Source: Candidatus Latescibacterota bacterium (lineage in GTDB: Bacteria > Latescibacterota > UBA2968). From it: 64,000 nucleotides of DNA. Both the position numbers and the translations under genes were made by a program. The stretch is taken from assembly GCA_965222605.1 (NCBI GenBank), contig OZ244960.1, positions 2,208,001 through 2,272,000 on the forward strand. Reading direction: 5' to 3'. The notes beneath the pieces are model-generated. The model was not told the DNA's origin and did not search any database. It saw only the letters and a program-made list of their open reading frames with translations. Shown here piece after piece: positions 3,796 through 54,049 of this stretch; within the stretch, counting starts at the first letter, position 1, and each line of letters opens with the position of its first letter.

Positions 3796-3849
3796 TTTGC
3801 TATTTGTCTAAAAAAATACCACAATTTCATTCTCAGGCAAGAAAAAGAT

Positions 3850-4194
3850 TCACGCCGTCTGAAATGCCGCGACAGCCTCATCTACGGAATCGTGCAGATC
3901 GAAAATTTTAATCAACTGCGTCTGTACAAAAATGCTGATCACATGATCGTGGGCATTGGCGAGTTTCAAATCGCCATTGGCCTTGCGCAAACGCTGTAAA
4001 AGCGCGGTCAAAACCCCAAATGCCATGCTGTTTAACCACCGCACCTGTCCCAAATCTAAAACCACTTTCATCCCCTCATTCTTGTCGAGCAATCCAGTTA
4101 CATGATCGGCCAACCCCGACATCTCGCGATCTGTCACCTGACCGTCGAGCTTTATAATGCGAATATTTTCCCTCATTGTTTCTTCAAAAGCCAT
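3850..4194 (-). CDS. STAS-domain anti-sigma-factor antagonist (RsbV/SpoIIAA-like)
   Basis: VVLDLGQVRWLNSMAFGVL (phosphorylatable Ser retained), GDLKLAN; start MAFEE chosen at 4194. Confidence 0.85.
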   Translation of the reverse strand: MAFEETMRENIRIIKLDGQVTDREMSGLADHVTGLLDKNEGMKVVLDLGQVRWLNSMAFGVLTALLQRLRKANGDLKLANAHDHVISIFVQTQLIKIFDLHDSVDEAVAAFQTA

Positions 4195-4207
4195 CTCGTT
4201 TTCCTTC

Positions 4208-23048: not shown

Positions 23049-24677
23049 ATGACAGAAATGACCTACCAGAGACCGAATCCCCGAGGCGACCATCGGATCC
23101 TCTATGTGAGCGACCCATCCACGATCGCACGCACTGTATTGCCCGATCCAGTAGAAGAAGCAGACCTGCGCAAATGGGTGGATATGGTCGCGGATAGCGG
23201 GATAGATATGTTCAATCAGGAGGTATTCTCTCAAGGATGGACGGTTTACTGGCAATCCGAACACTATGAATACGACCAGCGCCCTCAGCACCAGCGATTC
23301 AGGCCGTTGATCGAAGCGGGCACACAGCCACTGGATATACTCATCGACCAATCGCACCGGCGCGGCATGCAATTTATCGCTGGCTTCCGCATAAATGACG
23401 GCCATGCCGCGCATAACCGCCAACAGGGCGTCGGCATCGCCGAATATATTGAAGCCAACCCACATATGCGATTGCACGACCCGCGCCCGGCGCAGAACTA
23501 CCAGGAACCAGAAGCACTCGATTTCACACATCGGGAGGTTCGAGAATTTACTTATGGCGTTGTAGAAGAAGTCGCCTGCGGTTTTGACATTGACGGTGTG
23601 GAACTGTGTTTTCGGGACACGGCTTATTTCCCACCGCACCACGCTGCCGAACGCGCACACCTCATGACAGAATTGATACAAAATATCCGCACGCGACTGA
23701 ATGAACGCGGCAAAGAAATCGGCAAAAAACTCATATTGGGCGCGCGCATCTACTCAACCGTGGCAGAATGTGAACGTCAGGGCCTGGACATTTGCAATTG
23801 GATTCAGAATAGATTGCTCGACTACATCAGTCCTCAAGACACGATGTATGCCGACCACAATTTGCCCTATTCAGAATGGTCGGCACTAACGCGGGAAACA
23901 GAGTGCCTGCTCTATCCGGGCCTGCTTCCGTGGAACAGCTACCGCGCGCGCTATCGCCTCGGACGAATCCCCCTGAGCCACGCCACCTGCCGCGCACTCG
24001 CGCACACCATGTACGGCGCCGGTGCAGATGGCATATCGATCTACAACCATTTTGTGCCTTCCGTGTGGCAACAGCCTTTTTACCCTCAAGGAATGCAGGT
24101 CTTCCACCAGCTCCGCGACCCCGAACGCGTCGCACGCGGCGAACGGCACTACATCTTCGATCCCACCTGGGCCGGATTTAGCGGCTTCGGGACCGATGGC
24201 ATGTGCAGCACAGAGGTGATCAAAGCACAGCAACTCCGACTATCGCGCGGCGAACAGCGCCCCACGAGTGAATTTCGCTTTCAACTCTTTGAAAACCTGC
24301 AACACGCGCATTGCGCAACCCTTCTCTTTCGGGGATTCGGCCTGACCGAGGGCGATGAACTGGATGTGCTTCTCAACGGCCATGTCATACCCGACGAAAC
24401 CATCGGTCGCACCGCATCCTCTGATCGCGTGACAACCGTAGATTCGACACGAAAAAAAGACGGCAGAAACATACCCTGTACCGCTCAAGGCGGGCGGATC
24501 GAATTTCGCACACTCGCAGAAAAATCCGTCTTTTCCACGCGCTGGTTTGTGCTCTCGGACCCGCTCCTTGAACACGGCGATAACTGCCTGTCCATCACAC
24601 TCACCAAAAGCGACCCCGAAGCCGCGTCCCCCACAATTGTCATCGACGAAGTAGAAGTATTTGTCGAACCACGATAA
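23049..24677 (+). CDS. GHL10/DUF187-like TIM-barrel putative glycoside hydrolase
   Basis: FRINDGH, LDFTHREVR, DIDGVELCF, GLDI..WI, GADGISIYN pattern shared with 39327 and 50757. Confidence 0.65.
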   Translation: MTEMTYQRPNPRGDHRILYVSDPSTIARTVLPDPVEEADLRKWVDMVADSGIDMFNQEVFSQGWTVYWQSEHYEYDQRPQHQRFRPLIEAGTQPLDILIDQSHRRGMQFIAGFRINDGHAAHNRQQGVGIAEYIEANPHMRLHDPRPAQNYQEPEALDFTHREVREFTYGVVEEVACGFDIDGVELCFRDTAYFPPHHAAERAHLMTELIQNIRTRLNERGKEIGKKLILGARIYSTVAECERQGLDICNWIQNRLLDYISPQDTMYADHNLPYSEWSALTRETECLLYPGLLPWNSYRARYRLGRIPLSHATCRALAHTMYGAGADGISIYNHFVPSVWQQPFYPQGMQVFHQLRDPERVARGERHYIFDPTWAGFSGFGTDGMCSTEVIKAQQLRLSRGEQRPTSEFRFQLFENLQHAHCATLLFRGFGLTEGDELDVLLNGHVIPDETIGRTASSDRVTTVDSTRKKDGRNIPCTAQGGRIEFRTLAEKSVFSTRWFVLSDPLLEHGDNCLSITLTKSDPEAASPTIVIDEVEVFVEPR

Positions 24678-24719
24678 AAAAACAGGCCATCAGCCGCATG
24701 CATAACGGTTGATGGCCTG
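24676..24719. terminator. Terminator between convergent genes
   Basis: CAGGCCATCAGCCG / CGGTTGATGGCCTG stem with an A-run on the left (U-tract for the minus-strand operon). Confidence 0.7.
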
Positions 24720-24766
24720 ATATTCTGGGGTGGTGTAGGAGGTGGCCCTTTCACCTCTTACCTTTT

Positions 24767-25747
24767 TTAAAACGTCCCGGACAAACTTAACCTAAGAGGC
24801 GTATTCAGCAAAGGCCCAAAGTCTGAATACGAAACATCTACATGGATAGTTCGCCCTGAAAATGTACCCTTCAAGCCCGCGCCAACACTCCAGGATTCTT
24901 CGTCATATCGGAACTTGTACCCGGCGCGCAGGGCAATCGCGTTCATAACCCAAAGCTCTGCACCCAGATTATAACGCTGCCATCGGTCGGTGAAATAAGC
25001 GCCTTCGAGTGACCCGGTCAAAGAATAGGGATCGCCCAATTCCCCCAGCACCTCCATTGAGCCGCCAACGTGAAACACGGTCGGCATAGAGGATTTCTCC
25101 GTAACAATCTGCTGTTCGCCGCCCAGATTCTTCATACTCATGCCAATGCGAAAGCTCTTGAACCCGGTGTGCAAAAGCGTGCCCACGCTCAGACTCAACG
25201 CCTGTAATTTCTCTGCGCCAAGGGTGGATTGAATATAGCGAAGGGTCAGACCAGCCGAAAGCTTATTGGTCATCTGCCGCGCAACGGACAACCCGATCGC
25301 AGTATCGCCCGTATTCACCATATTGCCCGTGCCCGTGGGTTGCAAGGTAGTCGTCTCGATAATTTCGGGCGTTTGAAAAGTCACCACCGAAACCCCGACC
25401 ACAGTACTCCATCTCATATTGGCGGCAACAGCACCGGAATAGAATTTGGTATCTGCCAACCACTGAATATACCCGAAAGAATATCCCAGCCTGGGAACCT
25501 TCGCAATCCCCGCCGCATTCCAATAGATCGCTTCAATACCCTCGGCAACAGAGGTATAAGCATCTCCCATAGATGCGGCGCGCGCCGTGGGCGTCACCTT
25601 CAAAAATGTAAATGTGGAAGGTCCCTGCTTCTCGTAATTCTCTGTACTTTCAAGGGTATCTGTCGGTCTCACCTGGGCATGCCCCGGCAATGCGAAGCCG
25701 AGGATACCTAAAACGAGCACTACACAGCCTGTGAACCGTTTCATCAT
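24767..25747 (-). CDS. PorV/PorQ-family outer-membrane beta-barrel protein
   Basis: Signal peptide; FLKV.P.ARAASMGDAY, AIYWNAAG, LRAGY; terminal aromatic SGTF. Confidence 0.85.
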   Translation of the reverse strand: MMKRFTGCVVLVLGILGFALPGHAQVRPTDTLESTENYEKQGPSTFTFLKVTPTARAASMGDAYTSVAEGIEAIYWNAAGIAKVPRLGYSFGYIQWLADTKFYSGAVAANMRWSTVVGVSVVTFQTPEIIETTTLQPTGTGNMVNTGDTAIGLSVARQMTNKLSAGLTLRYIQSTLGAEKLQALSLSVGTLLHTGFKSFRIGMSMKNLGGEQQIVTEKSSMPTVFHVGGSMEVLGELGDPYSLTGSLEGAYFTDRWQRYNLGAELWVMNAIALRAGYKFRYDEESWSVGAGLKGTFSGRTIHVDVSYSDFGPLLNTPLRLSLSGTF

Positions 25748-25789
25748 TTTCTATCCTTTTCAAAAAGAGTGTAATAAATGGCCGAACAC

Positions 25790-28132
25790 TTACCGGTGGA
25801 TCACGAAAAGCCCGCGCTGAACTTTGCCAAAACCGGATCCTTGAACTTGGGACTCTACAGTGAAAATATAGACACCCGATGTGACCTCGCCGGTTATGAA
25901 ACGGTCTCTCAACTCCCAGATCGCCTCGCCGGAATTTGGATCGTCGTGCTCAATCTCACCCACCCGATCCCCCGATATCGAAAAGATCGAAATGGTGCAT
26001 TTTCTGGGCACGCCCACAAACCGCAGCTTTTTGGTATTTTGATAATTCTGTAGCGACTCCGCCAGGTTAAATGGATTTGGGACAACCAGTATCTGTTGCT
26101 CTAAATTGTCGGCAGCAACGGAAGAAGCCATTGTCGGACTCCTCGCAGCAATCATCCGCTGTTCTGGCGCCGACCATCCGCCTTCTATTCCATTGAGCAC
26201 ATGTTCTCGAACCACTGGCGGCAAATCGGCAAGGGTTTTCGTCCCCTTGCTCCAGCTCTGCTGCGGCTTGGCCACAGCGCGAACATTGTAGATGTAGAGA
26301 AAGCCCGCCAGAGAATTATCATCGGACCACGCATAGGTATTTGCACCCGTCGCCGGAACCTCACCCACGAGTTCCCATGGACCGTATTCTTGCCATGTGG
26401 AGCGATAAATCCGATAGCTCGCGACATTGGGCACGCCGAAATCGGGATGCACCGCCGTTTCTGCAGTATTCGTCCACGACACCTCCATCTGCGCGGTTTC
26501 ATCGCCTCGAATCTCAAATTCGACATCGGGCGGCGAATCGGGGATATCGTACGCATTTTCGTAAGCAAACTGCGCGTGCGACAAATTCTGTAACATCGCC
26601 CGTTCGCCCTGCGCCAGTGTCGTCTTTCGGGTGTTATCATCTACAACGCCAAAATTCCAACCCCATGTGATCATATCTCTGGTGTGACCCGTACTCGGAT
26701 GGGTATCAAAATCTGCAGCAGTGCCCAACACATATACCAGCACAATTTTGGCCTTGTCCCCAGGTGCGAGGTTGTACGGACCATAGACCTGATCATTCCA
26801 ACCCACGCCCACCTCCGGCGGATTGTCGTGTGACGGAGAAGTAAACGCATCGTAGATCTCTGCAGGACTCAACACACCGCGCAGCGGATCCTGGATCTTC
26901 TTTCGAGCAGTCGCTTGCCACCAGTGTGCCAGAATGGGCGTTTCGCCTTGGGGATCCACATAGCCCGCTACCCGATCTGCGGCATTGAATGTGTGGCTCG
27001 CGCCAGAATTGCGAAATGCCAGCGGTGCCATCCCCATATACTGCGGGGAAATCGGCATACCTTCGGGCCGAGCAGAACTTCCCGGGAATCCCCGTGCCGA
27101 TCCCACAGATTCGAGGTCTTTATAGAAGGGATCTCCCGTATCCTCTTCATTGCTTTGCACCGCATTGCCATCCCACTGGTAATTGATGTATTTCCCGGCA
27201 AAGTCATTGGCAGTCAAACCGCTCAGAGAATTGGGCTGAAAATTGGACGCCACGCTGGAGCGATACCAGTCATCGAGGCCACCCGCGCGCTTGTAATTAA
27301 TCTTTCCGCCTTCGTGTCCCCAGCGATAAGCTGTGCCAGCATTGCTGACGTAGAAGGCGTTCAAAAACCCGAAGTACGTATCGTTGAGCTGTTTGCCTCC
27401 CCTATTTTCAAATTCCAACTCCAGAATAAAGAAATCGTCGAAGTCCTGATGGCTCCACGTATATGCCTTTCTGGTCACCACGAGATCGTGTCTGGTCGTC
27501 CACTGCGAAATGATCACCTCTTCGGACGCGTTCTGAACAGGGGGATAGACCCCGTACCCGTAGTTGTGAATCTCATAAGGCGATGTACTCACCGGGTCTC
27601 CCGTCAATGCCGGCGCACCCTTGTAATAATTTACCATCAGATCGCCAACCCTGACGCCCCGAGTGGGTACTCTCGATTCGAGACCCCAATCTGCCTCCGG
27701 CATATTTTTAATATCGTAAATCAAAGGGAGCACATCTTCGGTCGGCTTGCGCGGCCCCGTCGCAGATACCCACTTCTCCCCATCCACATTGGTCAAAACG
27801 AGCACCCCTTCACCCGCGGAATTTGAGTGGGATTCTGTTTTCTGTGAATATACAGGCCACGACTTCTCGCCCCAGTAGTCGATAAATTCCGGCGGAGTCA
27901 TTCCGATCTGCATCGCATTGACGCCGCCCGGGTAGTTCATCCGCATCATAATTCGGGTCGCCGAAACATCGTAGTGCATCCCCTGCGTACCGGCACTGGT
28001 AAACGAAGTCCAAACCTGCGCCCGGGTCGTGTGCCGCGCCGTGCCGTAAACAACCTCTGCGGCGGGGACGGACTGCACGCCAATCAGCAACAGCAAAAGG
28101 CACAGCCGCCAGTTAAATTGCGTGTTGAACAT
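25790..28132 (-). CDS. Large secreted protein with FN3-like domain and T9SS type-A CTD-like C-terminus
   Basis: SPI signal; PDSPP..V.W..YRIYRS FN3-like segment; tail VVPNPF..CTISIFSISGDRV..W..VTSGVYIF..V..GLFVIHR. Confidence 0.75.
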   Translation of the reverse strand: MFNTQFNWRLCLLLLLIGVQSVPAAEVVYGTARHTTRAQVWTSFTSAGTQGMHYDVSATRIMMRMNYPGGVNAMQIGMTPPEFIDYWGEKSWPVYSQKTESHSNSAGEGVLVLTNVDGEKWVSATGPRKPTEDVLPLIYDIKNMPEADWGLESRVPTRGVRVGDLMVNYYKGAPALTGDPVSTSPYEIHNYGYGVYPPVQNASEEVIISQWTTRHDLVVTRKAYTWSHQDFDDFFILELEFENRGGKQLNDTYFGFLNAFYVSNAGTAYRWGHEGGKINYKRAGGLDDWYRSSVASNFQPNSLSGLTANDFAGKYINYQWDGNAVQSNEEDTGDPFYKDLESVGSARGFPGSSARPEGMPISPQYMGMAPLAFRNSGASHTFNAADRVAGYVDPQGETPILAHWWQATARKKIQDPLRGVLSPAEIYDAFTSPSHDNPPEVGVGWNDQVYGPYNLAPGDKAKIVLVYVLGTAADFDTHPSTGHTRDMITWGWNFGVVDDNTRKTTLAQGERAMLQNLSHAQFAYENAYDIPDSPPDVEFEIRGDETAQMEVSWTNTAETAVHPDFGVPNVASYRIYRSTWQEYGPWELVGEVPATGANTYAWSDDNSLAGFLYIYNVRAVAKPQQSWSKGTKTLADLPPVVREHVLNGIEGGWSAPEQRMIAARSPTMASSVAADNLEQQILVVPNPFNLAESLQNYQNTKKLRFVGVPRKCTISIFSISGDRVGEIEHDDPNSGEAIWELRDRFITGEVTSGVYIFTVESQVQGSGFGKVQRGLFVIHR

Positions 28133-28151
28133 GCTTTCCTCCAGATAAAAA

Positions 28152-31100
28152 TTAAAATTTCAAACGCGCACCAAACACAATCGACCGGGGCAGCCCGAGA
28201 CCGCGATTATATCGGGTCAGCTCATCCGTATCGCCGTGCGTCTGATAGACCTTGTCGGTGGGCGAGGGCAATGTCAATCCGTATTGAACCGAGTTAAAAC
28301 CGGTCGTCATATCGTCTTTCTGGTTCCAGATATTGCGTATTTCCAGAAATCCAGTTGCCGTTGTCGAAGTGCCGAATTGAAACTCCTTCTCGAAGTTCAT
28401 ATCTGTAACCGTCGAAATCGGAGCATTTCGGCGTACCTGCCCACCCTCTGGCGGCGCATACCACCAGGGGGTACCGCTCTGCACGCGGTAAATCATCGTC
28501 ACCCGAAAACCGGCCAGGGGACTGAAATGAAAGTCTGGCGGAGCCGAAAAGAGAAATTGCGCCGTGGCGTAATTTCTGCGGTCAATACCGCCTCGCAGCG
28601 TCGGAATCCCATAACTCGTATTGGAAAATAACCACAGCCCGGGTTCAATCTCGGTCGGGGGTTCAAAAATTCTACCCGTTGAGATAGACCCAACCTGATC
28701 AATCCACTTCTGCATGATCTGGTCCGCCTTTTCGGCGAATGCAGCCCGCGCTGCCGCATCTGGAACTATGGGCATCTCCTGACCATTGGATTCGACTTCA
28801 ATACCACTGAAAAACTTATCGCTGTTCACCCAGGTCGCATCGGGCACATAGAACCACTTCGCGGCTCTCTTCCCACCCTCAAACGACTTTACCCATTGCA
28901 AATTGTAGGACAGATTAAACGACGTCATGCGCGTGAACATCTTCTTAAACGAGATCTCAAAACCCCTGGACGTCAGAAAACTCTTGTTCGTGATCCCACT
29001 TGCATAAGTGGAGACAGATCCATAAGCGGGGTCTTCCATATGGGCGGATTGCCCGTCAATCTGCCCTTCCTGATCTTTGTAAAATGCGGTCACGCTGGCA
29101 ATATAATCGCCCGCAAAATTCCAATCAACGCCCACCTCAAAACTGGTGGTGCGTACCGGATCGGTCGAGACGGACCCAAATTTACCGGCCAGCGAGTGCG
29201 CCAGAGAATTGTAGATCTCATGCTGGTCGATCACGCCATTGCCATTCAGGTCTTTGTCCGGAACAGAAGAACGGAAGAACCGCGTATAAAACCACTGCAT
29301 ATCGTTAAACTGGTGAAAGGTTCCGGTGAAGAAGCGGATGCTGGCGCGAGCGGTGATAGGATGCGAGATACCCAGCCGGGTGCTCCACGCCGTATTGAGC
29401 GGGGAATCTTCCAGGGGGACATTTCGCCAGCGCGTCAGAGAACTGTAGTGATGCCACAGTATTTTCTCCCCGGCATAGCCCCAGGCCTCGCCCGGATCCA
29501 CCGCGTCGAACCGCACGCCAGCATTGACCACCAGGCCCTCAAACTCCATTTTGTCCTGCAAATAGAGCGCGTACTGAAGCGGTGTGAACGGTTCCATCCC
29601 GAGAATTGGATCTCCCTTGCCCACCAGACGAATCTGCCGAATTTGGGGATCGGGAAAGCCCTCCTCGTGCTGATAGATACTAAAACGGGTCAGTTCAAAG
29701 CCGCCTTTGACCAGATGTCCCCTGGTGATCTGACTGGTCAGATCGCCTTTTAGCAGCCAGCGATTTCTGCGGTAATAATCAAAGGAATGAACGTCCCGAG
29801 GCAGGTAAAATCCAGCACTGGAACGCCGGATCGCTTCGGTGGTCGCGGGGATACCACTCGTGTCAACCGCCGACCGCTGATGGGAAATCCGAAGTTCGTA
29901 AAAAGTCTTGGAAGAAATCGTATGCGTCAGCACAGCGTAAAGCACATTTTCCGTTTCGTTTCCCTCGCCAACACCGGCGAAGCCGCCGGGCACAAAGATA
30001 TTCTTCCCTTCCGTGGCATTCTGAAGCGACCGCGCCGAACCCTCTGGAATCGCAGAGGTACCACCTGTTCCATCGCTAAAGACCCGGGCAAAGTTATAGC
30101 CCTTGTAATAACCGTACACGCTGCCCACTTTCACCTTCGTGTTATTTCCCAACCGATAGGTGGCATTGCCCGAAAGCTGGATATTGAACGGCTCACCATT
30201 GTCGATATCGGGATATAAAGGCGCCTGCCGGCTATTCGTCAACGAGAGAAAGAATCCGGCATCCTCACTAATAGGACCAGAAAATGATCCTTCCCGAAAG
30301 TGCCCCCAAACACCCGTGTAGTCGGTCTGCTGGTGCGCCGGTTGATTGGTTCGGGAGTCAATCTCACTCGCAAAAGTCGGGTCGTTAAAGTCGGCCTGTC
30401 CTTCGTGGATCGCACTTTCGTAAACATTGGATCCCCAGTGCTTTTTGCCCGGCAGCGTTAATCGGTACTCGCCCAACCCGCCAAACTTATCCCTGCTCTC
30501 CCGCGTGATCAGGCTGATAACACCACCCTGTGCATTGCCGTATTCCGCGTCCATCCCACCCACAACCACCTGCACTTCCTGAAGGGCGGACTTGTTGATA
30601 CCCATGAAGTTCGGCGTCGAAAAGCCGTCGTTATTGACCAGTTTAATCCCATCTACCTCTACAAATGTCTCGTTTAGCCTTTGACCTCCGCTCCCGACGA
30701 CATTGCTGCCGCGAATGCGGAGATTGCCGTCTAAAGACACACCTGGAGAAAGTTCAATCAGGTCTTCGGCAGTGCGTGCAAGCGGCACGCGGTTAATATC
30801 GACAACATCGATAATATAGCGACTCGTCGTGCGGTCAGGCTCCACGGGCGGGCGTTCTGCAACCACCAGCATTTCAGCAGCCTGAAGAGTCGTCTCCTCG
30901 AGCTGAAAGTCGATCGTGGTTGTAAAATCTGCACGTACCACAACCGCGTTATTCACCCTCGGCGCATAGCCGACCATCGTCGCTTCCATCTGATATTCGC
31001 CCGGCTCTATGGCCAGGATCAAAAAATAGCCTTCTGAATCCGTGGTAGCACCTCTTCGCGTACCCTGCACCACCACATTCGCACCTGGCAGCGGTTCACC

Positions 31101-31205
31101 GCGTGCATCCCGCACAGTCCCACTGATTTTCCCCACCGACCCCGCCTCACTCATTGTGGGCCAGCACAGTGCCCCAACCAGTATCAGACCAATAATTTTG
31201 TTCAT
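28152..31205 (-). CDS. TonB-dependent receptor with N-terminal carboxypeptidase-regulatory-like domain
   Basis: GKISGTVRDARGEPLPGANV, plug PGV..IRG..VDG..GGMDAEYGNAQGGVI, QDKMEFEGLVVNAGVRFD, C-terminal PRSIVFGARLKF. Confidence 0.92.
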   Translation of the reverse strand: MNKIIGLILVGALCWPTMSEAGSVGKISGTVRDARGEPLPGANVVVQGTRRGATTDSEGYFLILAIEPGEYQMEATMVGYAPRVNNAVVVRADFTTTIDFQLEETTLQAAEMLVVAERPPVEPDRTTSRYIIDVVDINRVPLARTAEDLIELSPGVSLDGNLRIRGSNVVGSGGQRLNETFVEVDGIKLVNNDGFSTPNFMGINKSALQEVQVVVGGMDAEYGNAQGGVISLITRESRDKFGGLGEYRLTLPGKKHWGSNVYESAIHEGQADFNDPTFASEIDSRTNQPAHQQTDYTGVWGHFREGSFSGPISEDAGFFLSLTNSRQAPLYPDIDNGEPFNIQLSGNATYRLGNNTKVKVGSVYGYYKGYNFARVFSDGTGGTSAIPEGSARSLQNATEGKNIFVPGGFAGVGEGNETENVLYAVLTHTISSKTFYELRISHQRSAVDTSGIPATTEAIRRSSAGFYLPRDVHSFDYYRRNRWLLKGDLTSQITRGHLVKGGFELTRFSIYQHEEGFPDPQIRQIRLVGKGDPILGMEPFTPLQYALYLQDKMEFEGLVVNAGVRFDAVDPGEAWGYAGEKILWHHYSSLTRWRNVPLEDSPLNTAWSTRLGISHPITARASIRFFTGTFHQFNDMQWFYTRFFRSSVPDKDLNGNGVIDQHEIYNSLAHSLAGKFGSVSTDPVRTTSFEVGVDWNFAGDYIASVTAFYKDQEGQIDGQSAHMEDPAYGSVSTYASGITNKSFLTSRGFEISFKKMFTRMTSFNLSYNLQWVKSFEGGKRAAKWFYVPDATWVNSDKFFSGIEVESNGQEMPIVPDAAARAAFAEKADQIMQKWIDQVGSISTGRIFEPPTEIEPGLWLFSNTSYGIPTLRGGIDRRNYATAQFLFSAPPDFHFSPLAGFRVTMIYRVQSGTPWWYAPPEGGQVRRNAPISTVTDMNFEKEFQFGTSTTATGFLEIRNIWNQKDDMTTGFNSVQYGLTLPSPTDKVYQTHGDTDELTRYNRGLGLPRSIVFGARLKF

Positions 31206-31226
31206 TCTAAGTCCCTTTCCGATTGC

Positions 31227-31943
31227 TCAGTTAGAAAAGAAAAACTTAATCCTTGCATCAAAACTGAGCTTCTGTAAAGGATATGCCTCTGTCAGACCCC
31301 ACGCTTCCATTGGCCGCACGCGGCTGATGACCAGTTTGTACTGCCCGCGCACATCTATCGCCAGAGAGGATGAGGCGTAAAATTCCAGGCCACCACCCAG
31401 ATTGAAACCCAGCGCAACGCGCCGATCCGAGACCGACTCCAGCACGATCGATTCATCCAACGGCTGGCTTCTTTGCCCCGGAAAGATCAGGCCACTGATC
31501 TTATTCTCGACAAAGGTGAACCCCGTTCCAATCAGGAGATACGGCGAACTTCCGCCCCCCTGTGCCAACTTGGCACCGCTCCCGTTGATATGCCACAAAT
31601 AGTTAATCATACCACCACCCCACACCATCTCGGAGTTGGCATTTGGACTATTGTACTCGTTGCCATCAATAGACCAGAAAAAGGTGCGCTTCTCGAGTTC
31701 ACCACCGCTATATCCCCCGTAGAACGCATCGACTTCGGCACTCCAGCTCTGGTTGAGCACATAGACAAAGGTACCGCCGAAATTAAAGCCACCCGAAGGA
31801 TACCATTCGCCCAATTTGAACGCAGGCCTGTCGTATCCGAGGGCAACGCCGACACCCCACGTACCGTCAACCTGTGCTTCGCCCCTATCTGCACACAGAC
31901 AGATCAGAACAAAACACAAAAAAATAGCTGCTATAAACTTCAT
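31227..31943 (-). CDS. Outer-membrane beta-barrel protein (OmpA-like 8-strand)
   Basis: Signal peptide, SPYLLIGTG, GFNLGGGLEF, amphipathic strands; AAGGAGG RBS. Confidence 0.75.
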   Translation of the reverse strand: MKFIAAIFLCFVLICLCADRGEAQVDGTWGVGVALGYDRPAFKLGEWYPSGGFNFGGTFVYVLNQSWSAEVDAFYGGYSGGELEKRTFFWSIDGNEYNSPNANSEMVWGGGMINYLWHINGSGAKLAQGGGSSPYLLIGTGFTFVENKISGLIFPGQRSQPLDESIVLESVSDRRVALGFNLGGGLEFYASSSLAIDVRGQYKLVISRVRPMEAWGLTEAYPLQKLSFDARIKFFFSN

Positions 31944-31999
31944 AAGCAATCCTCCTTTCCAGAGAAATAAGCGCAATTATGTACTCTGCAACTTCTGCT

Positions 32000-32028
32000 A
32001 GTATAATTCCATTTTTCTCGCTTCGCAA
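32000..32028 (-). promoter_or_regulatory. Putative promoter of the OMP-TBDT-CTD-PorV operon, overlapping a + strand TATAAT for the GWxTD gene
   Basis: Minus strand TTGCGA-N17-TATACT; + strand TATAAT at 32002-32007. Confidence 0.45.
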
Positions 32029-32143
32029 GTGTTTTTAATATTGAAAATTAGCATGGCTATGATAACTTAATGCAATTGGGTTTACAAAGCCGCAGTTATT
32101 GGACATATTCTTTAAAAATAAACCTCTCTGTGAGACCATAGCA

Positions 32144-34564
32144 ATGAACGCAATATTATGTAGAACCTGGATGCTATTATTCCTCATCATCCCAATGTGT
32201 TTTGGGCTTGCCGGGGCAGAGAAAGGCGTGGAAACAGCTCCATCAGACTCGTTGCACGCGCTGGGAGAAGACCAACTGCGCAAAGGCATGCTCGACGGCG
32301 CCATCGAAACCTTTGCCCTACTGGTGGAAGCCTACCCTAAAAATGCCGTATTCAGATCCCGCCTGGGCTCCGCGCACCTCGCCCGCGGGGATTTTGACAC
32401 GGCACAAACCGCGTTTGAGCACGCCAGACAACTCAACCCGCAATTGCCCGACCCTTATGTGGGCCTTGGCGAAGTCTATGTAAAACGACCTGCAATGGGG
32501 ATAAAAGCCTTTTTCAATTTTCGAAAAGCCGTTGGAGAGGCCAGGCGGGCGACCAAAATCGATTCGACCTACGCGCCGGCCTATCGGTTATTAGGCGACC
32601 TCTATGAGCGATTCCGAGCAGACCACGAAAAAGCCATTGGCTACTACATGAAATACCTCGAACTGGAGCCAGACAGCCCGGACGAACTCTATTATTTTGG
32701 CCTGGCCTGCGTACAGGCCGGACAATACGACCCGCTCAACACCCACCTCGCACCCGCCCTCGAACGACAGCCCAACCAGATCCGCCTGCTTCCCCTTGTC
32801 GCACAGGGCTACTCTTACCGGGAACAATACGAAATGGCCCTGTCGCATTTTGAACGCTACCTGCAAAGCCTGAGCGAACGAGAACGCGAGTACTATACGG
32901 ACATATCCCTCATCGCTTCGCACAGAGAAATGCAGACATATCAAAGCGAAGAAACCGAGCGCCTGACCTATTTGAAACAATTCTGGCTCAGGCGAGACCC
33001 GGATGTGTTGACCCCAATCAACGAGCGCATTATCGAACACTATCGTCGCGTGTGGTATGCCCGCACCTTCTTCTCTCAAAACACCACCCCCTGGGACCAG
33101 CGCGGAGTGGTTTATATTCGATATGGCGAACCCGATTTTCGCTCTTCATCCGATAAGCCGAACCTGCTGATCAGCCCCGAAGTAGAGGCCGTACGCACCC
33201 GAATGGCCGTGGATATGTACGGCCCGAATGCCGCTTATCTCACATTTACTGGACCTGTTTTTCCAATACGGAAACACAACTTGAACACGGGAGAAAGCAT
33301 TCAGGACTTGAGGACATTGGATCCGGATACAGAGATAGATATTGAAGGCGTGGTAACAGCCGGGGATGTGGTGGATTTAACCGTCCCCATCAGCAAGGAA
33401 AGCGGTGCGGGAAGCGGGCGGGCGCCTTTTGATCAAGCGGGTCGGATCAAATTGCGATTGAATTTTCAGAACTACGCCCCCGTCACAATGGACCGGGAAT
33501 TTGAGACCGTGCCATGGGAGACGTGGACATACACACAACTCCGCGATGGCATCGAAATAACATTTACAGATGAAATGAACAACGGACGTTACGCATTTGC
33601 CCCATTGCCACCCATGCCCACAGGCGAGAATCAGACCCAGCATGCAGCTCGGATGATGGAATACATGCCCGGGGTCCTCTTCCGCAAAGCCACCGCCACC
33701 ACCCCCGATTACTACCGCCCGGGCATTGAACGGGACGCCCTCCATTTTTATTACGACCTCGCGGATTTCCGCGGCGAAGACGGAAAGACCTCTGTGGAAG
33801 TTTACTACGGAGTACCGCCCGGCAAAGTGGAAATCGCAACAGGACAGGATGAATTTTTGATCCAGGTGCAAAGCGCCCTTGCACTGGCAAACGAGGGCCA
33901 CACCGAGATCTTTCGCGCAGCAGAGATATTTTCCTACCAGAACACAACGGGTTTCGACCGACAAAAGGGCGCGTATATCCCGGATATGCTGCGGGTTCAG
34001 GTGCCACCCGGAACGTACGAATTACAGGTACAACTCAAAGATATGGCATCGAGACGCGTGGGCGTTTACAAACAGACCCTGAAAATTCAGGACTACGGCA
34101 CCGATCAGCTTCGGCTAAGTGGCATCCTGCTGGCTTCGTCCATTGGCGAGAGCGGAACCAACGACCGGTTTCAGAAAGGAGATTTGTGGATAGAGCCAAT
34201 GCCATCCCGGGCTTATCAAGAAAACCAGAAAGTCTATGCCTATTTTGAAATCTACAACCTGAAACGCGATACCTTTGGGCAGACGCGCTACCGCATTCAA
34301 TATCGCGTACGTCACCATCCCGGCAATCCAGTCGGCGTTAAAGGCATCGTAGCCGCCGGATTCCGCAACCTGTTCAAACGCCGCAAACCCCAGGTATCCG
34401 TCACCTACGAACAGGTCGGCTCGCAACCGACTGAGAGGGAATACATCGAACTGGACCTGAGCAAAGCCGAGACTGGCGTCAATGTCCTCGAAGTAATCAT
34501 TACCGATCTGGTAACGGGAAATACCGAAACCAGAGAAGTGGCTTTCCTCTACGGCAGGATTTGA
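32144..34564 (+). CDS. TPR + GWxTD-domain protein
   Basis: Signal peptide, TPR helices, FWLRRDPD.LTPINER..EHYRRV.YA...F...WDQRG.VYIRYGEPD, WETWTY. Confidence 0.85.
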   Translation: MNAILCRTWMLLFLIIPMCFGLAGAEKGVETAPSDSLHALGEDQLRKGMLDGAIETFALLVEAYPKNAVFRSRLGSAHLARGDFDTAQTAFEHARQLNPQLPDPYVGLGEVYVKRPAMGIKAFFNFRKAVGEARRATKIDSTYAPAYRLLGDLYERFRADHEKAIGYYMKYLELEPDSPDELYYFGLACVQAGQYDPLNTHLAPALERQPNQIRLLPLVAQGYSYREQYEMALSHFERYLQSLSEREREYYTDISLIASHREMQTYQSEETERLTYLKQFWLRRDPDVLTPINERIIEHYRRVWYARTFFSQNTTPWDQRGVVYIRYGEPDFRSSSDKPNLLISPEVEAVRTRMAVDMYGPNAAYLTFTGPVFPIRKHNLNTGESIQDLRTLDPDTEIDIEGVVTAGDVVDLTVPISKESGAGSGRAPFDQAGRIKLRLNFQNYAPVTMDREFETVPWETWTYTQLRDGIEITFTDEMNNGRYAFAPLPPMPTGENQTQHAARMMEYMPGVLFRKATATTPDYYRPGIERDALHFYYDLADFRGEDGKTSVEVYYGVPPGKVEIATGQDEFLIQVQSALALANEGHTEIFRAAEIFSYQNTTGFDRQKGAYIPDMLRVQVPPGTYELQVQLKDMASRRVGVYKQTLKIQDYGTDQLRLSGILLASSIGESGTNDRFQKGDLWIEPMPSRAYQENQKVYAYFEIYNLKRDTFGQTRYRIQYRVRHHPGNPVGVKGIVAAGFRNLFKRRKPQVSVTYEQVGSQPTEREYIELDLSKAETGVNVLEVIITDLVTGNTETREVAFLYGRI

Positions 34565-34625: not shown

Positions 34626-36425
34626 TTACGGCAGATTCAATGGAATTTCTATCTCAGCCTCGGGTTCGCGGTAGGCGCGATAGGTTGCCCAGTAAGTATT
34701 TCCCGAGTAGGCATTGAGTCGGAAGACCTCCGTACCGGTAGCATCGACCTCACTTATCGCTACCGCCCTCTCCTCTATCGCCAGACTTTCGTCGTAACCG
34801 CGATCATTCCGCCATGCAATCAGCCAGTTCCCATTATCGAGCACTGTGACCCCTCCCCACCAGGGCGTATAACCGTATTTTGGATCCAACCGAAACTGAC
34901 GTATAAAACTGGCCTGACCGCTAACGGGATCAATCGCGTATTCCACCACCCGGGAAAACTGCTCCAAGTCACCGCGATTAGGCGATTCACCGATCCGCGC
35001 GCTCAGACAACCGCCACCATTATCAAATAGAACGACGGTACCCCTATCGGTCAGCGTTGGCTGGTGCTGCGCGCAAAACTCTCCCATACCTTCATCATCG
35101 CCCTCTATCGTCAGGAACACGCGGTCATCCGGAAATGATTCTCCTTGATCGGTGCCGCCGAGTTGCCACACGATGCTCGTACCTGGATTATCTTCAGACT
35201 TTGCTGAACGATCAATCCGAAACACCTGCGAACCACCTCTCAACGACACAATAATATCCCCCTCTATCAGTTGTATGGAATTGATATGTGCATAATCCCT
35301 CTTGAAGTCATCCCACAGACAATCGGGATCAATCGTCAGATGGTCAAAGCCGACCCAACGGTAAACCTCCTCGCCCATCGGCGTAACTTCCTGGATAACT
35401 GGATCTGTCGTATTGTGTACACCGTGTTCACCAAAGTCGCGCCGCGCCGGGTTATAAGCCATAAACATAAAATTGCCCTCGTCGGTAATCAGAAAATCGT
35501 GACTGGTGACTTGCGTCACTGGAGGGACGGTTTCTACTGTCTTGATCAACTCGAACGATTCGTCGAACAACTCTACCTCTGACACAAAGGCAAAGGTACG
35601 CGGTTCTGGCACCTGTTTGGCTACTGAATAATGTACCTTTCGCCCATCTATCGTCGGGCCGGTGGTATGACGCTGGAAGTGAGAGCGTCGAGTGGAGAAC
35701 CTGCGGTGGAATCTGGGCACACCATTGTTGTCCATGACAACCATGAAGAAAGGGGGATTGGCACCTTTTATACCTACATTCATGAACATCAAGCCATCCG
35801 ACACGCCAGCTTGCTTCTTCACAACTCTGATCTCCGGAAAATCCGAGGGGATGCAGTGGACAACATAGGTCACAGAATTCTGTCCATCACTCAGTTCAAT
35901 TGCAATGTCGTGGTCGCTATCTACAACGACTGCTTCATCTACATCTCGACCCGACATCTCAATATTGTTCAGCTTTAGTTGCATCTCCTCACCCTTAGCC
36001 CTTGCCTTCACCTGCAACTTCGTGGCATCTTCGCACCGGATAGCATAATGGCGAACATCGGGATCAAAAGTCGGATACATCTCGCCAATGCCGCCGGTTA
36101 CCGCCAGAGAGGTCAGTACCAGATCCACTTCAGGCGGGGCAGATTTTCCAAAGTGATCGACAAAAATCAAGAAATCAGACACCGAAATCTCGCCGTCACC
36201 ATCCAAATCATACTTGGCTTTATACGTCTCATCGCCACGCTTTGCACCGAAATGATCTACAAAAAGTAAAAAGTCGGGAATATCCACAATCCCGTTCCCA
36301 TTAAAATCAGGTAATAACTCTGCCGAGACTTCCAACGCAGTGCTGAGGGTCAATATCACTGCTATCGAGATAGATGTAAAACGCACGCGAAGCAAATTAT
36401 ATCCTCCTGAAGTAAAAATGGCCAT
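34626..36425 (-). CDS. Dockerin-like EF-hand + cadherin-like + aryl-sulfate sulfotransferase (ASST)-family protein
   Basis: DFNGNGIVDIPDF / DLDGDGEISVSDF; DYAHINSI, VSLR, WQLGG, AQHQP, LFDNG, YRAYR ASST motifs. Confidence 0.8.
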   Translation of the reverse strand: MAIFTSGGYNLLRVRFTSISIAVILTLSTALEVSAELLPDFNGNGIVDIPDFLLFVDHFGAKRGDETYKAKYDLDGDGEISVSDFLIFVDHFGKSAPPEVDLVLTSLAVTGGIGEMYPTFDPDVRHYAIRCEDATKLQVKARAKGEEMQLKLNNIEMSGRDVDEAVVVDSDHDIAIELSDGQNSVTYVVHCIPSDFPEIRVVKKQAGVSDGLMFMNVGIKGANPPFFMVVMDNNGVPRFHRRFSTRRSHFQRHTTGPTIDGRKVHYSVAKQVPEPRTFAFVSEVELFDESFELIKTVETVPPVTQVTSHDFLITDEGNFMFMAYNPARRDFGEHGVHNTTDPVIQEVTPMGEEVYRWVGFDHLTIDPDCLWDDFKRDYAHINSIQLIEGDIIVSLRGGSQVFRIDRSAKSEDNPGTSIVWQLGGTDQGESFPDDRVFLTIEGDDEGMGEFCAQHQPTLTDRGTVVLFDNGGGCLSARIGESPNRGDLEQFSRVVEYAIDPVSGQASFIRQFRLDPKYGYTPWWGGVTVLDNGNWLIAWRNDRGYDESLAIEERAVAISEVDATGTEVFRLNAYSGNTYWATYRAYREPEAEIEIPLNLP

Positions 36426-36538
36426 CCGTCCTCTAATTACACAGAACTGATGACCATTGTGTACTGCCCTTGCACATCAACCGAACAGTCGTGCCTACTC
36501 CGAAGTCTTGTTATCTGAGGTTGCAAGTTAAACTACAC

Positions 36539-38470
36539 CTAATGACAGCTATAAATATCTGGACTGAACGCTTTTGAATTCACAGGAATCTCTACCCCGA
36601 AGTTCGAAGGCTTGCTATTTGAGATTGTAAGCGGCGTGTTGCGAATCGTTTCCCACTCGGTGCGTAGATTTTTTACCCAGACTGGCAAAGTTCCCAAACG
36701 CAATTCAAGCTGTGCTTCAAAAAGCGATTCCGGTTCAACCGCCTCGCCATTGGATTCCAGAATCTCGAGAGTACTTTCCTCAAAAGTGGCCGGATTGCCG
36801 TGAAAGCCTACAATAATCGGATACAAAAATTTGAGATATCCCTGCCAAAAATCATAGTGAGTAACATCGCCCCCGTGGTTGTAATTCCAGAACACAAGAC
36901 GCCTGAGATGGTGGGGCGGAACACCGCCACCGCTGCTACCAGACAACCTGCCATTATTCACGCAGTCGTACAAATTTGCATAGCAGGGATCGGTCTTATG
37001 GATATCAAGTGGCTGGTTTGGCGCCATATCAAAACGATAGATCACATTGCCCGTTGAGACATGGCTCATACCCGCGCCATGATGTTGGCCTGGAATCGCA
37101 CGGGTGTTTCTCTGAGCATCGATGAGAGGGGCCGTGCTATAAGGAGCCTGGCCTGCAATATCTTCGGACAGCCCAAACCATATCCCGTAACTGCCCTGAC
37201 TGTTAAAAGCAGTATGGCCCTTATTTCCCGCTATTGTAACCTGATAAACCGATGAGGCAGCACTGACAGTAAAACCAAGTGCGCCACTGACATGCATGAA
37301 AGAGACGCGCCGAACCCAGGAATTGACACACCGGTTGAATGAGAGCAACTTCCAGCCCGCATTGTGGATGAAATTCAGGTGATGGACAAATGACTCAAAG
37401 AACGAGCCGTGAAAGCTGATGTCCTCAACGCCGACTTCTTCGAGATGCGGCAAGGACTGCACCCCCCAATTATATGCGTGATTCACACGGGCATGCAGGG
37501 GTGCATTGAGGCGAATGCGATTGCCTTGAATCTCGGCAATGCTGTGTTCTTCCCGTATATCAAGCCCCACTTCGAAAAGTTCCGACAAGCCGGATGGCGA
37601 GCGAGGAGCAAGGAACTCATTAATTGCTTCTTCCTCCTTAGTATTCACAGAGACCCAAATCCACTGACCGACTGAGAGCCTGGAAGCATTATTCACTGTA
37701 ATCCAAAAAGTTTCTCGCTCCGCACGCTCTGTAATGCGCGTTAAGGTAGAACGACTGAAGCTAACAGGCTGGAAAAGGAACATACTGGACACATAACCGG
37801 GTCTATCGGGAAGGGGGGACATATGATTTACCATTCGGATGATGGTGCCACCCATTCGGCTACCGCTACCTCGCAAAACAATATTGCTACTCCTGATGTA
37901 GATAGGCTCATTGTAGCCCTCGTCATTTTTATCCGCATCGGTATTGACGAGAAATTCACCTGGCGGGAAGAACACAACACCACTGCCATTGGCCTCTGCT
38001 GCGGCAATAGCACTTACAATAGCAGGCTGGTCAGATACATTATCGTTAGGGATCGCACCATACGTTGTAACGTCAAAAATGGGATGCGCGACATCGGGAA
38101 CCGGTTTGTTGAAATAGTGATAGCCCGAATAAGAAAAATCGGGTAAAATGGGTTCTGTCCCATACTCTTTTGCCTTCACAAACTGCTGATAGGTGATCGC
38201 GTTCCGCAGAAATTCCACTGTTCTGCCAAAGCTGCTGGCAAAGAGCAGAAAATCGCCAAACCCAATTGCGCCATCGCCATTCAGATCGTACTTTGTATCA
38301 TACCTCTCTTGACCTTCCCGAGCACCAAACGCGCTTACAAATAGCAAAAAGTCGGTAAAATCGACCACACCACTCTCGTCAAAGTCCGGGGAAGGTGCCG
38401 CAGATAACGGTTGGACCAACAGAGCGACGAGTATGATTATAAACGTTTGTAAACGCATGCGAAGCAGCAT
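36539..38470 (-). CDS. Dockerin-like EF-hand + pectate-lyase-like beta-helix (DUF4955-like) protein
   Basis: DFDESGVVDFTDF / DLNGDGAIGFGDF; LPDFSYSGY, FDVTTYGAIPND, FFPPGEF, VEPESLFEAQL. Confidence 0.75.
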   Translation of the reverse strand: MLLRMRLQTFIIILVALLVQPLSAAPSPDFDESGVVDFTDFLLFVSAFGAREGQERYDTKYDLNGDGAIGFGDFLLFASSFGRTVEFLRNAITYQQFVKAKEYGTEPILPDFSYSGYHYFNKPVPDVAHPIFDVTTYGAIPNDNVSDQPAIVSAIAAAEANGSGVVFFPPGEFLVNTDADKNDEGYNEPIYIRSSNIVLRGSGSRMGGTIIRMVNHMSPLPDRPGYVSSMFLFQPVSFSRSTLTRITERAERETFWITVNNASRLSVGQWIWVSVNTKEEEAINEFLAPRSPSGLSELFEVGLDIREEHSIAEIQGNRIRLNAPLHARVNHAYNWGVQSLPHLEEVGVEDISFHGSFFESFVHHLNFIHNAGWKLLSFNRCVNSWVRRVSFMHVSGALGFTVSAASSVYQVTIAGNKGHTAFNSQGSYGIWFGLSEDIAGQAPYSTAPLIDAQRNTRAIPGQHHGAGMSHVSTGNVIYRFDMAPNQPLDIHKTDPCYANLYDCVNNGRLSGSSGGGVPPHHLRRLVFWNYNHGGDVTHYDFWQGYLKFLYPIIVGFHGNPATFEESTLEILESNGEAVEPESLFEAQLELRLGTLPVWVKNLRTEWETIRNTPLTISNSKPSNFGVEIPVNSKAFSPDIYSCH

Positions 38471-49548: not shown

Positions 49549-49604
49549 CGCACCCTTCTCCTTCGCGAATGACCTGGAGGCGCCCAGTACATCCAAATTC
49601 CGCT

Positions 49605-50528
49605 CTACTTTGCTTTTGAGGTGAGGCCCCATTCTTTGCGAAGTTCCCAAATGGATTTTCGATCTTCCAGAGGGGACTTGGGAATGACGTCGCCCGCGTC
49701 CTCTCCCATATGGCGATCGTCAATCGCTTCGGATGCGAGTTGATAACGGGTATCGCTGCTAAAGCGAAAATAATTGGACGTGTTTTTAAGCGAGGCGTGC
49801 ATGAAATACATGCCGAAGATGACGACATCACCCGCGTTAAAAGGGGTGGACGCCCAGCGGACACCCAGAGTTTTCATAACGTCATCGGGATCGGTGGAAA
49901 ACGCGCCCCCATCCAGATCTTGATGCGCGTCCATCGCGCCGTAAGTATTTTTGAGATGCTGGATCTTGTGGGAGCCTAAACAGAGGGCAAGCGGGCCCAT
50001 GTCCAGAGATATATCGCCGAGCGCGGTCCACATCGTGTAGAGGTTTTTGGTGCCAGCACCCATATAGACCACATCGTAATGCGCCCCCGCATTCTGACCT
50101 CGGCAGATCACGCGGAGCCATTTGTGGTCAAATGAAAGAACGGGGCCGCCCATGAAGCGTTCGAAGAAGTCCAGGGTATTTTTGCCTTCAACGATTTCGA
50201 GAAATCCCGACCATTGTTTCACAAGTCGATCCGGAAAGCGGGGACGGCGATTTTCGCCAATCACTGCCTTGTCCAGAGGCGTGTCCGGGGCAAGGAGATT
50301 CTGGGCGGCCATGTTTTCCAGAATTTCTCGCCGGGCATTTTGAATTTGCTGCCGCGTATGAAAGTTGCGAATGATGAGATAGCCGTCTTCTTCGATGCGC
50401 TGGTGGAGAGCCTCGGTATCGTCGAGCAGATGGGTGGCTTCCCTGGGGGTGAAAATAGTTTCGCCAAAGACGAGTTCGCGCCCAGACATCGAAACCCGGG
50501 TGCCGTCGGGAATGTTAAAAGTGGACAT
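49605..50528 (-). CDS. PhyH-family Fe(II)/2OG dioxygenase
   Basis: AHYDVVYMG, WTALGD, GDVVIF..Y.MHAS..N, SSDTRYQ. Confidence 0.88.
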   Translation of the reverse strand: MSTFNIPDGTRVSMSGRELVFGETIFTPREATHLLDDTEALHQRIEEDGYLIIRNFHTRQQIQNARREILENMAAQNLLAPDTPLDKAVIGENRRPRFPDRLVKQWSGFLEIVEGKNTLDFFERFMGGPVLSFDHKWLRVICRGQNAGAHYDVVYMGAGTKNLYTMWTALGDISLDMGPLALCLGSHKIQHLKNTYGAMDAHQDLDGGAFSTDPDDVMKTLGVRWASTPFNAGDVVIFGMYFMHASLKNTSNYFRFSSDTRYQLASEAIDDRHMGEDAGDVIPKSPLEDRKSIWELRKEWGLTSKAK

Positions 50529-52322: not shown

Positions 52323-52471
52323 CAGTTCGACCTCGTTTCTTTTCAAAGACTACCTTCAAAAGTATTCGGAGACCGGGGGAAAGTCAACTCTAACCTGAGC
52401 CGATTCCCGAGTAAACGACCATCCGCGCAGCATTATCGTTTTCCGTGAGCGGTCACCGCCACCGCGAATAA

Positions 52472-54037: not shown

Positions 54038-54049
54038 CAGGTATCTCCT

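Follow-up and report, generated by a model that had tools for sequence, protein, structure and literature searches.

The 64,000-nt stretch of a Candidatus Latescibacterota genome analysed here (the window; contig OZ244960.1, positions 2,208,001 to 2,272,000) carries on its minus strand an operon of four co-oriented genes, which encode a small outer-membrane beta-barrel, a TonB-dependent transporter (TBDT), a 780-aa protein that we call p780 and an outer-membrane barrel of the PorV/PorQ family (Table 1). An earlier annotation made from the letters of this DNA, referred to below as the original prediction, had read these genes as a nutrient-uptake system without SusD, in which a dedicated PorV tethers a secreted protein by a type IX secretion system (T9SS) C-terminal domain (CTD). 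Such a system would be an analogue of the polysaccharide utilization loci (PULs) of Bacteroidota. The succession of TBDT, p780 and PorV-like genes, here called the cassette, is repeated many times in this genome and in related ones, and we read it as a candidate PUL-like uptake module.

Genes of the cassette and the families of their products

The tight packing of the four genes was confirmed, with gaps of 21, 19 and 42 nt calculated from the open reading frame (ORF) coordinates. A GGAGG motif sits 7 nt ahead of ATG 31943 in the small-barrel gene, so the 238-aa product is likelier than the 249 aa that the listed ORF (31227–31976, minus strand) would give if its TTG start were used. The accompanying claim of one promoter and one terminator could not be established. 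Promoter-like sites, including two on the minus strand of the divergent intergenic region (32087–32059 and 32028–32000), numbered 9 against 6.7 ± 2.5 in shuffled sequences, and terminator-like sites numbered 7 against 7.9 ± 3.0, so neither scan gave an excess; a 10-bp stem followed by seven T, some 50–90 nt past the stop of the PorV-like gene on the minus strand, was picked out by eye.

Table 1. Features of the window discussed in the text (positions are those of the window)
Feature	Coordinates (strand)	Remarks
Small outer-membrane beta-barrel gene	31227–31943 (−)	238 aa from ATG 31943; ORF listing instead opens at TTG 31976
TonB-dependent transporter (TBDT)	28152–31205 (−)	1017 aa; N-terminal CarboxypepD_reg, plug, large divergent barrel
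p780, whole gene	25790–28132 (−)	780 aa
p780 body	26102–28132 (−)	signal peptide without lipobox, about 500 aa of no recognised family, FN3-like stretch, linker
p780 C-terminal tail	25790–26101 (−)	residues 678–780 and stop; cassette-type CTD-like domain
PorV/PorQ-family outer-membrane barrel	24767–25747 (−)	326 aa; C-terminus ...SGTF
Two hairpins 3' of the PorV-like stop	24675–24761 (−)	second followed by T7, terminator-like; by eye, scan not above chance
Divergent intergenic region	31977–32098	promoter-like hexamers on both strands
Divergent GWxTD/TPR gene	32099–34564 (+)	821 aa; hydrophobic segment at N-terminus
Two secreted-looking proteins with N-terminal dockerin type I	34626–38470	one with arylsulfotransferase domains; the other pectate-lyase-like with DUF4955
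Weak GHL10 match	50757–52346 (−)	below Pfam cut-off; downstream of second cassette
Three sulfatases	57826–59322, 54050–55495, 52472–54037 (−)	downstream of second cassette
DUF6785+DUF6784 polytopic membrane protein	59353–61413 (−)	downstream of second cassette
Second cassette	61510–64000 (−)	PorV-like 61510–62505; p786 from 62522, running off the window

Family scans bore out the predicted identities of both barrels, the receptor and the divergent gene. The TBDT bears a CarboxypepD_reg domain (74.5 bits) and a Plug domain (25.2 bits, cut-off 23.9), and the plug together with a large barrel ending in an aromatic C-terminus (...RLKF) identifies it as a TonB-dependent transporter; a TonB-box-like stretch behind its N-terminal domain was noted by eye, and the PF00593 barrel model gave no match at E ≤ 0.01. 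Searched against the PDB, the TBDT family profile matched the plug of FepA/PfeA (3e-12), the plugs of Cir, and also a SusC homologue (8aa4_A, positions 18–493, 5e-11). The protein does not qualify as SusC/RagA, scoring 58.7 bits on TIGR04056 against a cut-off of 368.25 and over residues 26–213 only, and all cassette TBDTs match that model only at positions 2 to about 218. The window's own small barrel matched no family at E ≤ 0.01, and PF13505 (OMP_b-brl) was found in 18 of the 21 members of its family; the sole PDB match of the small-barrel profile, a designed lectin, was rejected as spurious. The divergent gene combines TPR repeats with a GWxTD domain (TIGR04514, 55.6 bits against 28, residues 266–350).

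The PorV-like barrel belongs to the NF033709 family, at 168.3 bits against a cut-off of 90 and over residues 45–323 of 326. It lies below both equivalog models, for PorV (NF033710, 68.4 against 250 bits) and for PorQ (NF033711, 78.5 against 220 bits), and matches the PorP/SprF model weakly (23.3 bits). Against the PDB, its family profile found PorV only, as 6h3i_F (3.9e-17) and six further entries.

As had been predicted, p780 is not a lipoprotein. It has a signal peptide and no lipobox, so another anchor would be required if p780 stays on the cell. It matched no Pfam or NCBIfam family in the scans. The absence of a SusD-like lipoprotein from the locus was likewise upheld, SusD families (PF07980 and related) matching none of the five locus proteins in the family scans and none of 26 p780 homologues at E ≤ 1. 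The body has no relative by sequence in the PDB, where the lone match (E 0.94) is noise, and its FN3-like stretch was labelled by eye. Ten distant p780 relatives matched no Pfam family except for one weak match to CHU_C, PF13585 (19.9 bits against 27); a search for longer fused forms of p780 found none, which is weak evidence. Among the 28 p780 paralogues of this genome identity is highest in the tail (41%) and lowest in the body (24–30%), a conserved tail and a variable body that would fit a shared docking function with a variable ligand-facing part.

The tail itself had been described as a type A T9SS CTD. It scores 16 bits on TIGR04183 against a cut-off of 23 and 14.8 bits on PF18962 against 27; four paralogue tails reach 19.6–22.1 bits on TIGR04183, just under its cut-off, and 14 CTDs of the same genome lie above it. 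When the 28 p780 tails were aligned with these type A CTDs in hhalign, the probability was 97.6% (E 3.2e-12, 69 columns), the CTD side consisting of 14 sequences, one of them a mis-called ORF. The last 100 or so residues of p780 can thus be placed in the CTD superfamily by homology to the type A CTDs of the same genome. Among the 26 p780 homologues the tail also gave weak matches to CHU_C in nine (best E 1.2e-4), to the PorZ model in six and to TIGR04183 in three.

A hidden Markov model (HMM) of the tail scored all 28 cassette tails at 80–137 bits and reached eight canonical type A CTD proteins at 15–21 bits, while seven more, found by the CTD model, were unmatched; both HMMs were trained on the tested sequences, and the cross-scores alone are informative. 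The gene neighbourhoods differ too: a PorV-family gene lies no more than two genes away from every cassette tail (28/28) versus one of 15 canonical CTD proteins, and that one adjoins a PorV-like gene outside the cassettes. On sequence comparison, then, the p780 tail is a putative relative of the CTDs that forms a subclass by itself, and the curated thresholds place it in neither type A nor type B. What stands of the earlier label is the homology to type A CTDs; the assignment to type A does not, the tail being below the type A cut-offs and in a separate subclass. In four other cassette-bearing genomes (G168, G169, G171 and G172) a cassette-type tail, corresponding to profile positions of about 680–784, ends proteins of 460–1330 aa with unrelated bodies.

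Repetition of the cassette within the genome and its conservation elsewhere

The genome is a Latescibacterota metagenome-assembled genome (MAG) of 6.34 Mb in a single contig, 98.7% complete with 5.4% contamination. ORFs were called on it and searched with iterated HMMs built from the window proteins. This search yielded 28 triplets of TBDT, p780 and PorV-like genes, 21 of which have the small barrel upstream of the TBDT. Immediately upstream of each of the 28 p780 genes is a TBDT paralogue, a PorV-like paralogue follows as the first or second gene downstream, and each of the 21 small-barrel paralogues sits two genes upstream of a p780 gene. A second cassette lies at the end of the window, with its TBDT and small barrel beyond the window end. 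The genome holds one full-length SusC (531.6 bits) and, beside it, one SusD_RagB match; this single pair is at C1:3841329–3845505 and has a TAG inside the SusD_RagB frame, which may be a broken or mis-assembled SusD.

NF033709 has 40 matches in the genome, 34 of them individually over the cut-off. A maximum-likelihood tree built from 36 members of the family has a clade of 22 barrels (support 100/99) that holds all 21 barrels of four-gene cassettes and one of a three-gene cassette, and the two PorV-like copies of the window are sisters (100/96). The non-cassette PorV-like gene (C1:1504623–1505687) falls outside the 22-barrel clade and has a long branch. This gene, which scores highest in the genome on the PorV model (155.5 bits over the full length, under the cut-off of 250), lies beside canonical CTD cargo. 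The notion of a locus-specific PorV paralog needs amending in that the barrel is not a single one, being one of 28 in cassettes with a barrel clade of their own. Two further cassettes (C1:553727–556279 and C1:4053141–4055693) have p780 genes of 850 aa whose listed ends are identical, and their PorV-like genes sit on branches of length 0 and 0.003; the pair goes back either to a segmental duplication of very recent date or to an artefact of assembly or contamination.

The distance matrices of p780, PorV-like barrel and TBDT are strongly correlated (Mantel r 0.90–0.92), with all pairs alike. The partial correlation of tail with PorV given the body (0.34) hardly exceeds that of tail with TBDT given the body (0.27). 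As the partial correlations do not single out the pair of tail and PorV, we rejected co-evolution as evidence of specific binding between tail and PorV.

A survey of genome contigs for relatives of p780 gave 277 stretches, of which 80 loci were kept. Nearly all come from Candidatus Latescibacterota MAGs, two are titled Neomarinimicrobiota, and a few have another phylum label or none. The order TBDT, p780, PorV-like on one strand is found in 75 of the 80, and four of the five exceptions end at a contig end beside the missing gene. The small barrel is present in 62 of the 80 and a GWxTD/TPR match in 15. More distant relatives of about 690 aa, from genomes labelled Neomarinimicrobiota, show the order TBDT, p780-like, PorV-like in 10/10 loci, and the tails of these ten score 91–100 bits on the cassette-tail HMM. 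Conservation of the triplet order, which the original prediction had put forward as a check, is thus borne out in 28/28 cases in the genome itself, in 75/80 related loci and in 10/10 distant ones. This recurrence is more than chance, and the cassette is present both in Latescibacterota and in genomes labelled Neomarinimicrobiota. One MAG titled 'uncultured Gemmatimonas sp.', which contributes four loci (L004, L058, L059 and L065) and about 30 p780 matches, is probably mislabelled, as the same contig coordinates occur under a genome of the window's own class.

Of the 168 genomes in the window's phylum, 57 match p780 at E ≤ 1e-20. They are concentrated in three families (27/30, 21/22 and 2/3 genomes) versus 1/76 in the largest family, and genomes of the window's own genus have 18–48 first-look p780 candidates each. 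In the phylum that holds locus L072, p780 matches at E ≤ 1e-50 were found in 24 of 151 sampled genomes, seven with two full-length genes and 17 with the ~690-aa relatives. The family of p780 and its tail is a large one: a profile search of 1.84 billion representatives returned 4205 clusters at E ≤ 1e-3, a number that falls to 1538 at E ≤ 1e-10 and to 142 at E ≤ 1e-30. The p780 homologues are unnamed or annotated as hypothetical.

Export of p780 by the T9SS would require its translocon, and the check for sprA that had been suggested was positive: SprA is encoded at C1:203804–208507 (a 2086-aa frame matched at 492.5 and 133.7 bits, 630 bits in frame against 200). Every one of the 57 genomes of the phylum that carry p780 has it. 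The PorU model matched at 237 and 72 bits, against 420, in an 1896-aa PorU-like protein with a type A CTD (C1:739546–745236).

Neighbouring genes and RNA libraries

Three families recur when the ORFs up to seven positions away from the 28 cassettes are clustered. A family of about 660 aa occurs near 20 of the 28; its member in the window is the DUF6785+DUF6784 protein, which has about ten hydrophobic segments and would be polytopic. Another, of about 480–520 aa, occurs near seven, and its three window members are the sulfatases. GWxTD/TPR relatives lie no more than seven ORFs from 16 of the 28 cassettes in the genome. The small barrel, the DUF6785/6784 protein and the GWxTD/TPR genes are accordingly recurrent accessories of the cassette.

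In the window the second cassette and its neighbours (50757–64000) form a fuller PUL-like layout than the first cassette, which is flanked by a GHL10-like gene, a PhyH protein, aminotransferases and two dockerin-bearing proteins. With sulfatases, GHL10 and dockerin enzymes nearby, the description of the locus as embedded among catabolic enzymes holds good. Two other genes or groups of the window deserve mention. An 871-aa TPR protein at 47035–49650 resembles the GWxTD/TPR gene and weakly matches the TPR repeats of Slam, the surface lipoprotein assembly modifier (24.2 bits against 35.2). At 1687–7102 lie two large sensor kinases, one a histidine kinase of HAMP-PAS type and the other a PAS hybrid kinase that has receiver domains; they are possible regulators of the nearby catabolic genes.

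RNA libraries give a hint that the operon is expressed. In four of four runs, from two studies, 59–71% of the operon's sampled words were present, and two of the operon-holding runs are labelled sponge metagenome. Contigs from these libraries span the junctions between PorV-like gene and p780, between p780 and TBDT and between TBDT and small barrel, in pieces covering 24762–28359 and 28538–31610 (X16), 27658–28321 (X18) and 31174–31452 (X17). The X15 and X16 contigs end near 31968–31983, just upstream of the small-barrel start; we do not claim a transcription start there, as the X15 end is loose and both contigs come from one study. Nor can the 7.2-kb X15 contig be taken as one transcript, for it also spans the convergent GHL10 gene, and it may be DNA. 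Unlike the operon, the divergent GWxTD gene is almost without cover in the four runs, an absence that we do not count as a finding.

Interpretation, alternatives and comparison with known systems

We have hardly any doubt that the cassette is a conserved functional unit, and an uptake role for it appears quite probable. The reading that we favour, with a probability of roughly 55%, is that of a PUL-like, modular system for uptake at the outer membrane, with a surface component that would be held by its own PorV/PorQ-like barrel, as PorZ is by PorQ. The cassette would then probably stand in for the SusC/SusD nutrient-uptake loci of Bacteroidota. The strict, adjacent and stable one-to-one pairing suggests that the features gathered here, namely a non-lipoprotein, a private CTD class, a private barrel and a position behind the TBDT gene, function together.

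The steps may be pictured as follows. The TBDT would import a substrate, probably derived from a glycan. p780 would be exported by Sec and then pass the outer membrane through the SprA translocon, guided by its CTD-like tail. The tail, uncleaved, would stay on the cassette's PorV/PorQ-like barrel beside the TBDT and so keep p780 on the surface; that the private barrel serves as anchor for the tail seems, by analogy with published pairs, slightly better than an even bet. The variable body might bind or process the substrate, in the role of a SusD lipoprotein or of surface glycan-binding proteins, so that specificity would be set by the body and docking by the conserved tail. The small barrel would be an accessory part of the complex, and the DUF6785/6784 protein, where present, might move the product across the inner membrane. 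We infer the surface location, the binding of tail to barrel, the contact with the TBDT and the class of substrate, and the originally predicted tethering, with the cargo serving the receptor as its lid or enzyme, is a proposal that draws on gene linkage and published precedents.

Several observations weigh against this picture. The p780 body shows no recognisable fold, ligand site or catalytic motif in sequence searches, and its tail is under every curated CTD threshold; TIGR04131, the type B model, was likewise unmatched in the genome at E ≤ 0.01, where no positive control scored. Among the T9SS components searched for in this genome and in four other cassette-bearing genomes, the GldL, GldM and GldN models were unmatched, with no positive control scoring anywhere, so that we do not claim their absence, and the GldK model gave C-terminal FGE-type matches only, of at most 102 bits against 350. 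The co-occurrence of SprA with p780 is non-discriminating, since 163 of the 168 genomes of the phylum have SprA, and we set it aside. One locus (L058) has no PorV-like match despite 7 kb of sequence downstream, and no DUF6785 gene is found among the neighbours of the first cassette (24767–31943). Co-inheritance explains the correlated divergence of the cassette proteins without specific co-evolution. RNA-library contigs, finally, can hold DNA, and a contig over several genes is not the same as a single transcript.

It should be considered that the PorV-like barrel may be a dedicated shuttle rather than an anchor, with p780 a secreted or lipopolysaccharide (LPS)-bound enzyme or binder that merely feeds the TBDT. 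Shuttling is the established role of PorV as a review describes it (PMC10202324), both SprA and a CTD protein resembling PorU are encoded in the genome, and the type A CTDs to which the tail is homologous are as a rule cleaved. However, a single non-cassette PorV-like gene is already present beside a canonical CTD cargo, there is no evident reason to keep 28 private shuttles one-to-one with their cargo, and the dedicated PorV-like and PorP-like partners described in two published accounts are cases of anchoring (PMC10202324, PMC9143113). We consider this alternative improbable. A second one, to which we give the same low standing, holds that the barrel passes some hydrophobic or amphipathic compound as a channel of FadL type, in parallel to the TBDT, and that it lies next to p780 for reasons of co-regulation only; the tail would then be served by the general T9SS or be merely an Ig-like domain, a corollary that we hold to be just as improbable. 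PorV and FadL are indeed described as sharing a family of 14-stranded folds (PMC12578637, PMC12611786), and the cassette barrels are under the equivalog cut-offs of both PorV and PorQ, but the sole solved relative by sequence is PorV and not FadL, the pairing of tail with PorV-like gene in every cassette and hardly ever among canonical CTD proteins would be left unaccounted for, and the sulfatase and GHL10 neighbours suggest glycans over lipids. Least likely is that the cassette is no importer at all, with p780 acting as an adhesin, or as a unit of a surface layer, that the PorV-like barrel displays, for instance for attachment to a host matrix, and the TBDT-like protein serving signalling or assembly: SprF–SprB, the closest published dedicated barrel–CTD pair, is described as displaying an adhesin (PMC9143113), two of the RNA runs come under a sponge label and the p780 body matches no enzyme or binding family, yet a plug and, by eye, a TonB-box-like stretch are present in the TBDT, the cassettes repeatedly have a polytopic membrane protein and catabolic enzymes as neighbours, and a 28-fold diversification with variable bodies resembles the repertoires of PULs.

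If an uptake module with a barrel-held surface component is the correct reading, it would constitute a new architecture of TonB-dependent nutrient capture outside Bacteroidota, in which lipid anchoring is replaced by a CTD in a barrel and PorV-like barrels act as general sockets for surface proteins. [quoted passage not shown] More tentatively, and at somewhat less than even odds, the FCB group may in these cassettes have solved the PUL problem a second time and independently: TBDT, PorV/PorQ-like barrel and small barrel would form a stable multi-barrel complex in which a retained CTD of a new class, neither type A nor type B, plugs a substrate-capturing lid into a private barrel and so takes the place of lipid anchoring. 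PorV-like barrels would then be sockets for surface proteins in general. This would explain SusD-free polymer uptake by abundant uncultured marine groups such as Latescibacterota and Marinimicrobia. The sulfatase and glycoside-hydrolase-like neighbours, together with the sponge-labelled RNA runs, suggest that the system may matter for the way in which uncultured symbionts and deep-sea bacteria turn over glycans. Conveniently, the 28 natural cognate and non-cognate pairs within one genome could be used for tests of specificity.

In the literature searched, which excluded most subscription journals and supplements, we found no published description of a cassette of TBDT, CTD protein and PorV-like barrel, nor any of DUF6785/DUF6784 or of GWxTD. 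The available portion of a 2015 paper on Latescibacteria mentions TonB only for B12 and iron (PMC4454575). A number of characterised systems nevertheless offer useful points of comparison.

The cassette resembles the SusC/SusD PULs in its large TBDT with an N-terminal CarboxypepD_reg-type domain, directly followed by the gene of a non-barrel partner, and in its many diversified copies per genome amid sulfatases and glycoside-hydrolase-like genes. It differs in that p780 is neither SusD by sequence nor a lipoprotein, that the cassette TBDT fails the SusC/RagA model (58.7 versus 368 bits), and that a PorV/PorQ-like barrel is obligatory and a small barrel usual. BtuB–BtuG is a system in which a TBDT is capped by a lipid-anchored surface lipoprotein of non-SusD fold that captures the substrate. 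The likeness lies in the extracellular non-SusD cap for a TBDT, whereas the anchor of the cassette would be a barrel-held CTD.

For that anchor the closest precedents come from the T9SS itself. PorZ is described as retaining its CTD to bind PorQ, and the CTD of PorU as remaining on PorV, and the same review proposes that cognate PorV-like barrels shield CTDs from cleavage (PMC10202324). As in those pairs, a PorV/PorQ-family barrel is coupled with a CTD-bearing protein, the cassette barrels give scores with the PorQ as well as the PorV model, and six of the 26 p780 homologues weakly match the PorZ model; in contrast, the cassette members are below equivalog cut-offs, come as 28 pairs per genome, each linked to a TBDT, imply no role in LPS attachment, and have a binding that is predicted only. 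Type B CTD proteins are described as anchoring non-covalently on PorP-like barrels, independently of PorU and PorV (PMC9143113). PG1035–PorP and SprB–SprF share with the cassette a dedicated adjacent barrel for each cargo, and the weak CHU_C matches in nine of the 26 p780 homologues and the weak PorP/SprF match of the cassette barrel (23.3 bits) point in the same direction. The cassette barrel is nonetheless of the PorV/PorQ family (168 versus 23 bits), its tail fails TIGR04131 and its cargo is tied to a transporter.

A third type of precedent is architectural. The FadL-like BamG is described as holding the surface protein BamH against the BamA barrel (PMC12578637, PMC12611786), a FadL/PorV-like 14-stranded barrel packing on another barrel while its loops hold an extracellular protein, which is the arrangement that we propose for the cassette. 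BamG–BamH differs in that its function is the biogenesis of outer-membrane proteins and that BamH is a lipoprotein, and the likeness is one of architecture. Set beside all these systems, the cassette fails the SusC and SusD tests and has a barrel that is neither PorV nor PorQ, and we propose that it joins PUL-type uptake with T9SS-type anchoring.

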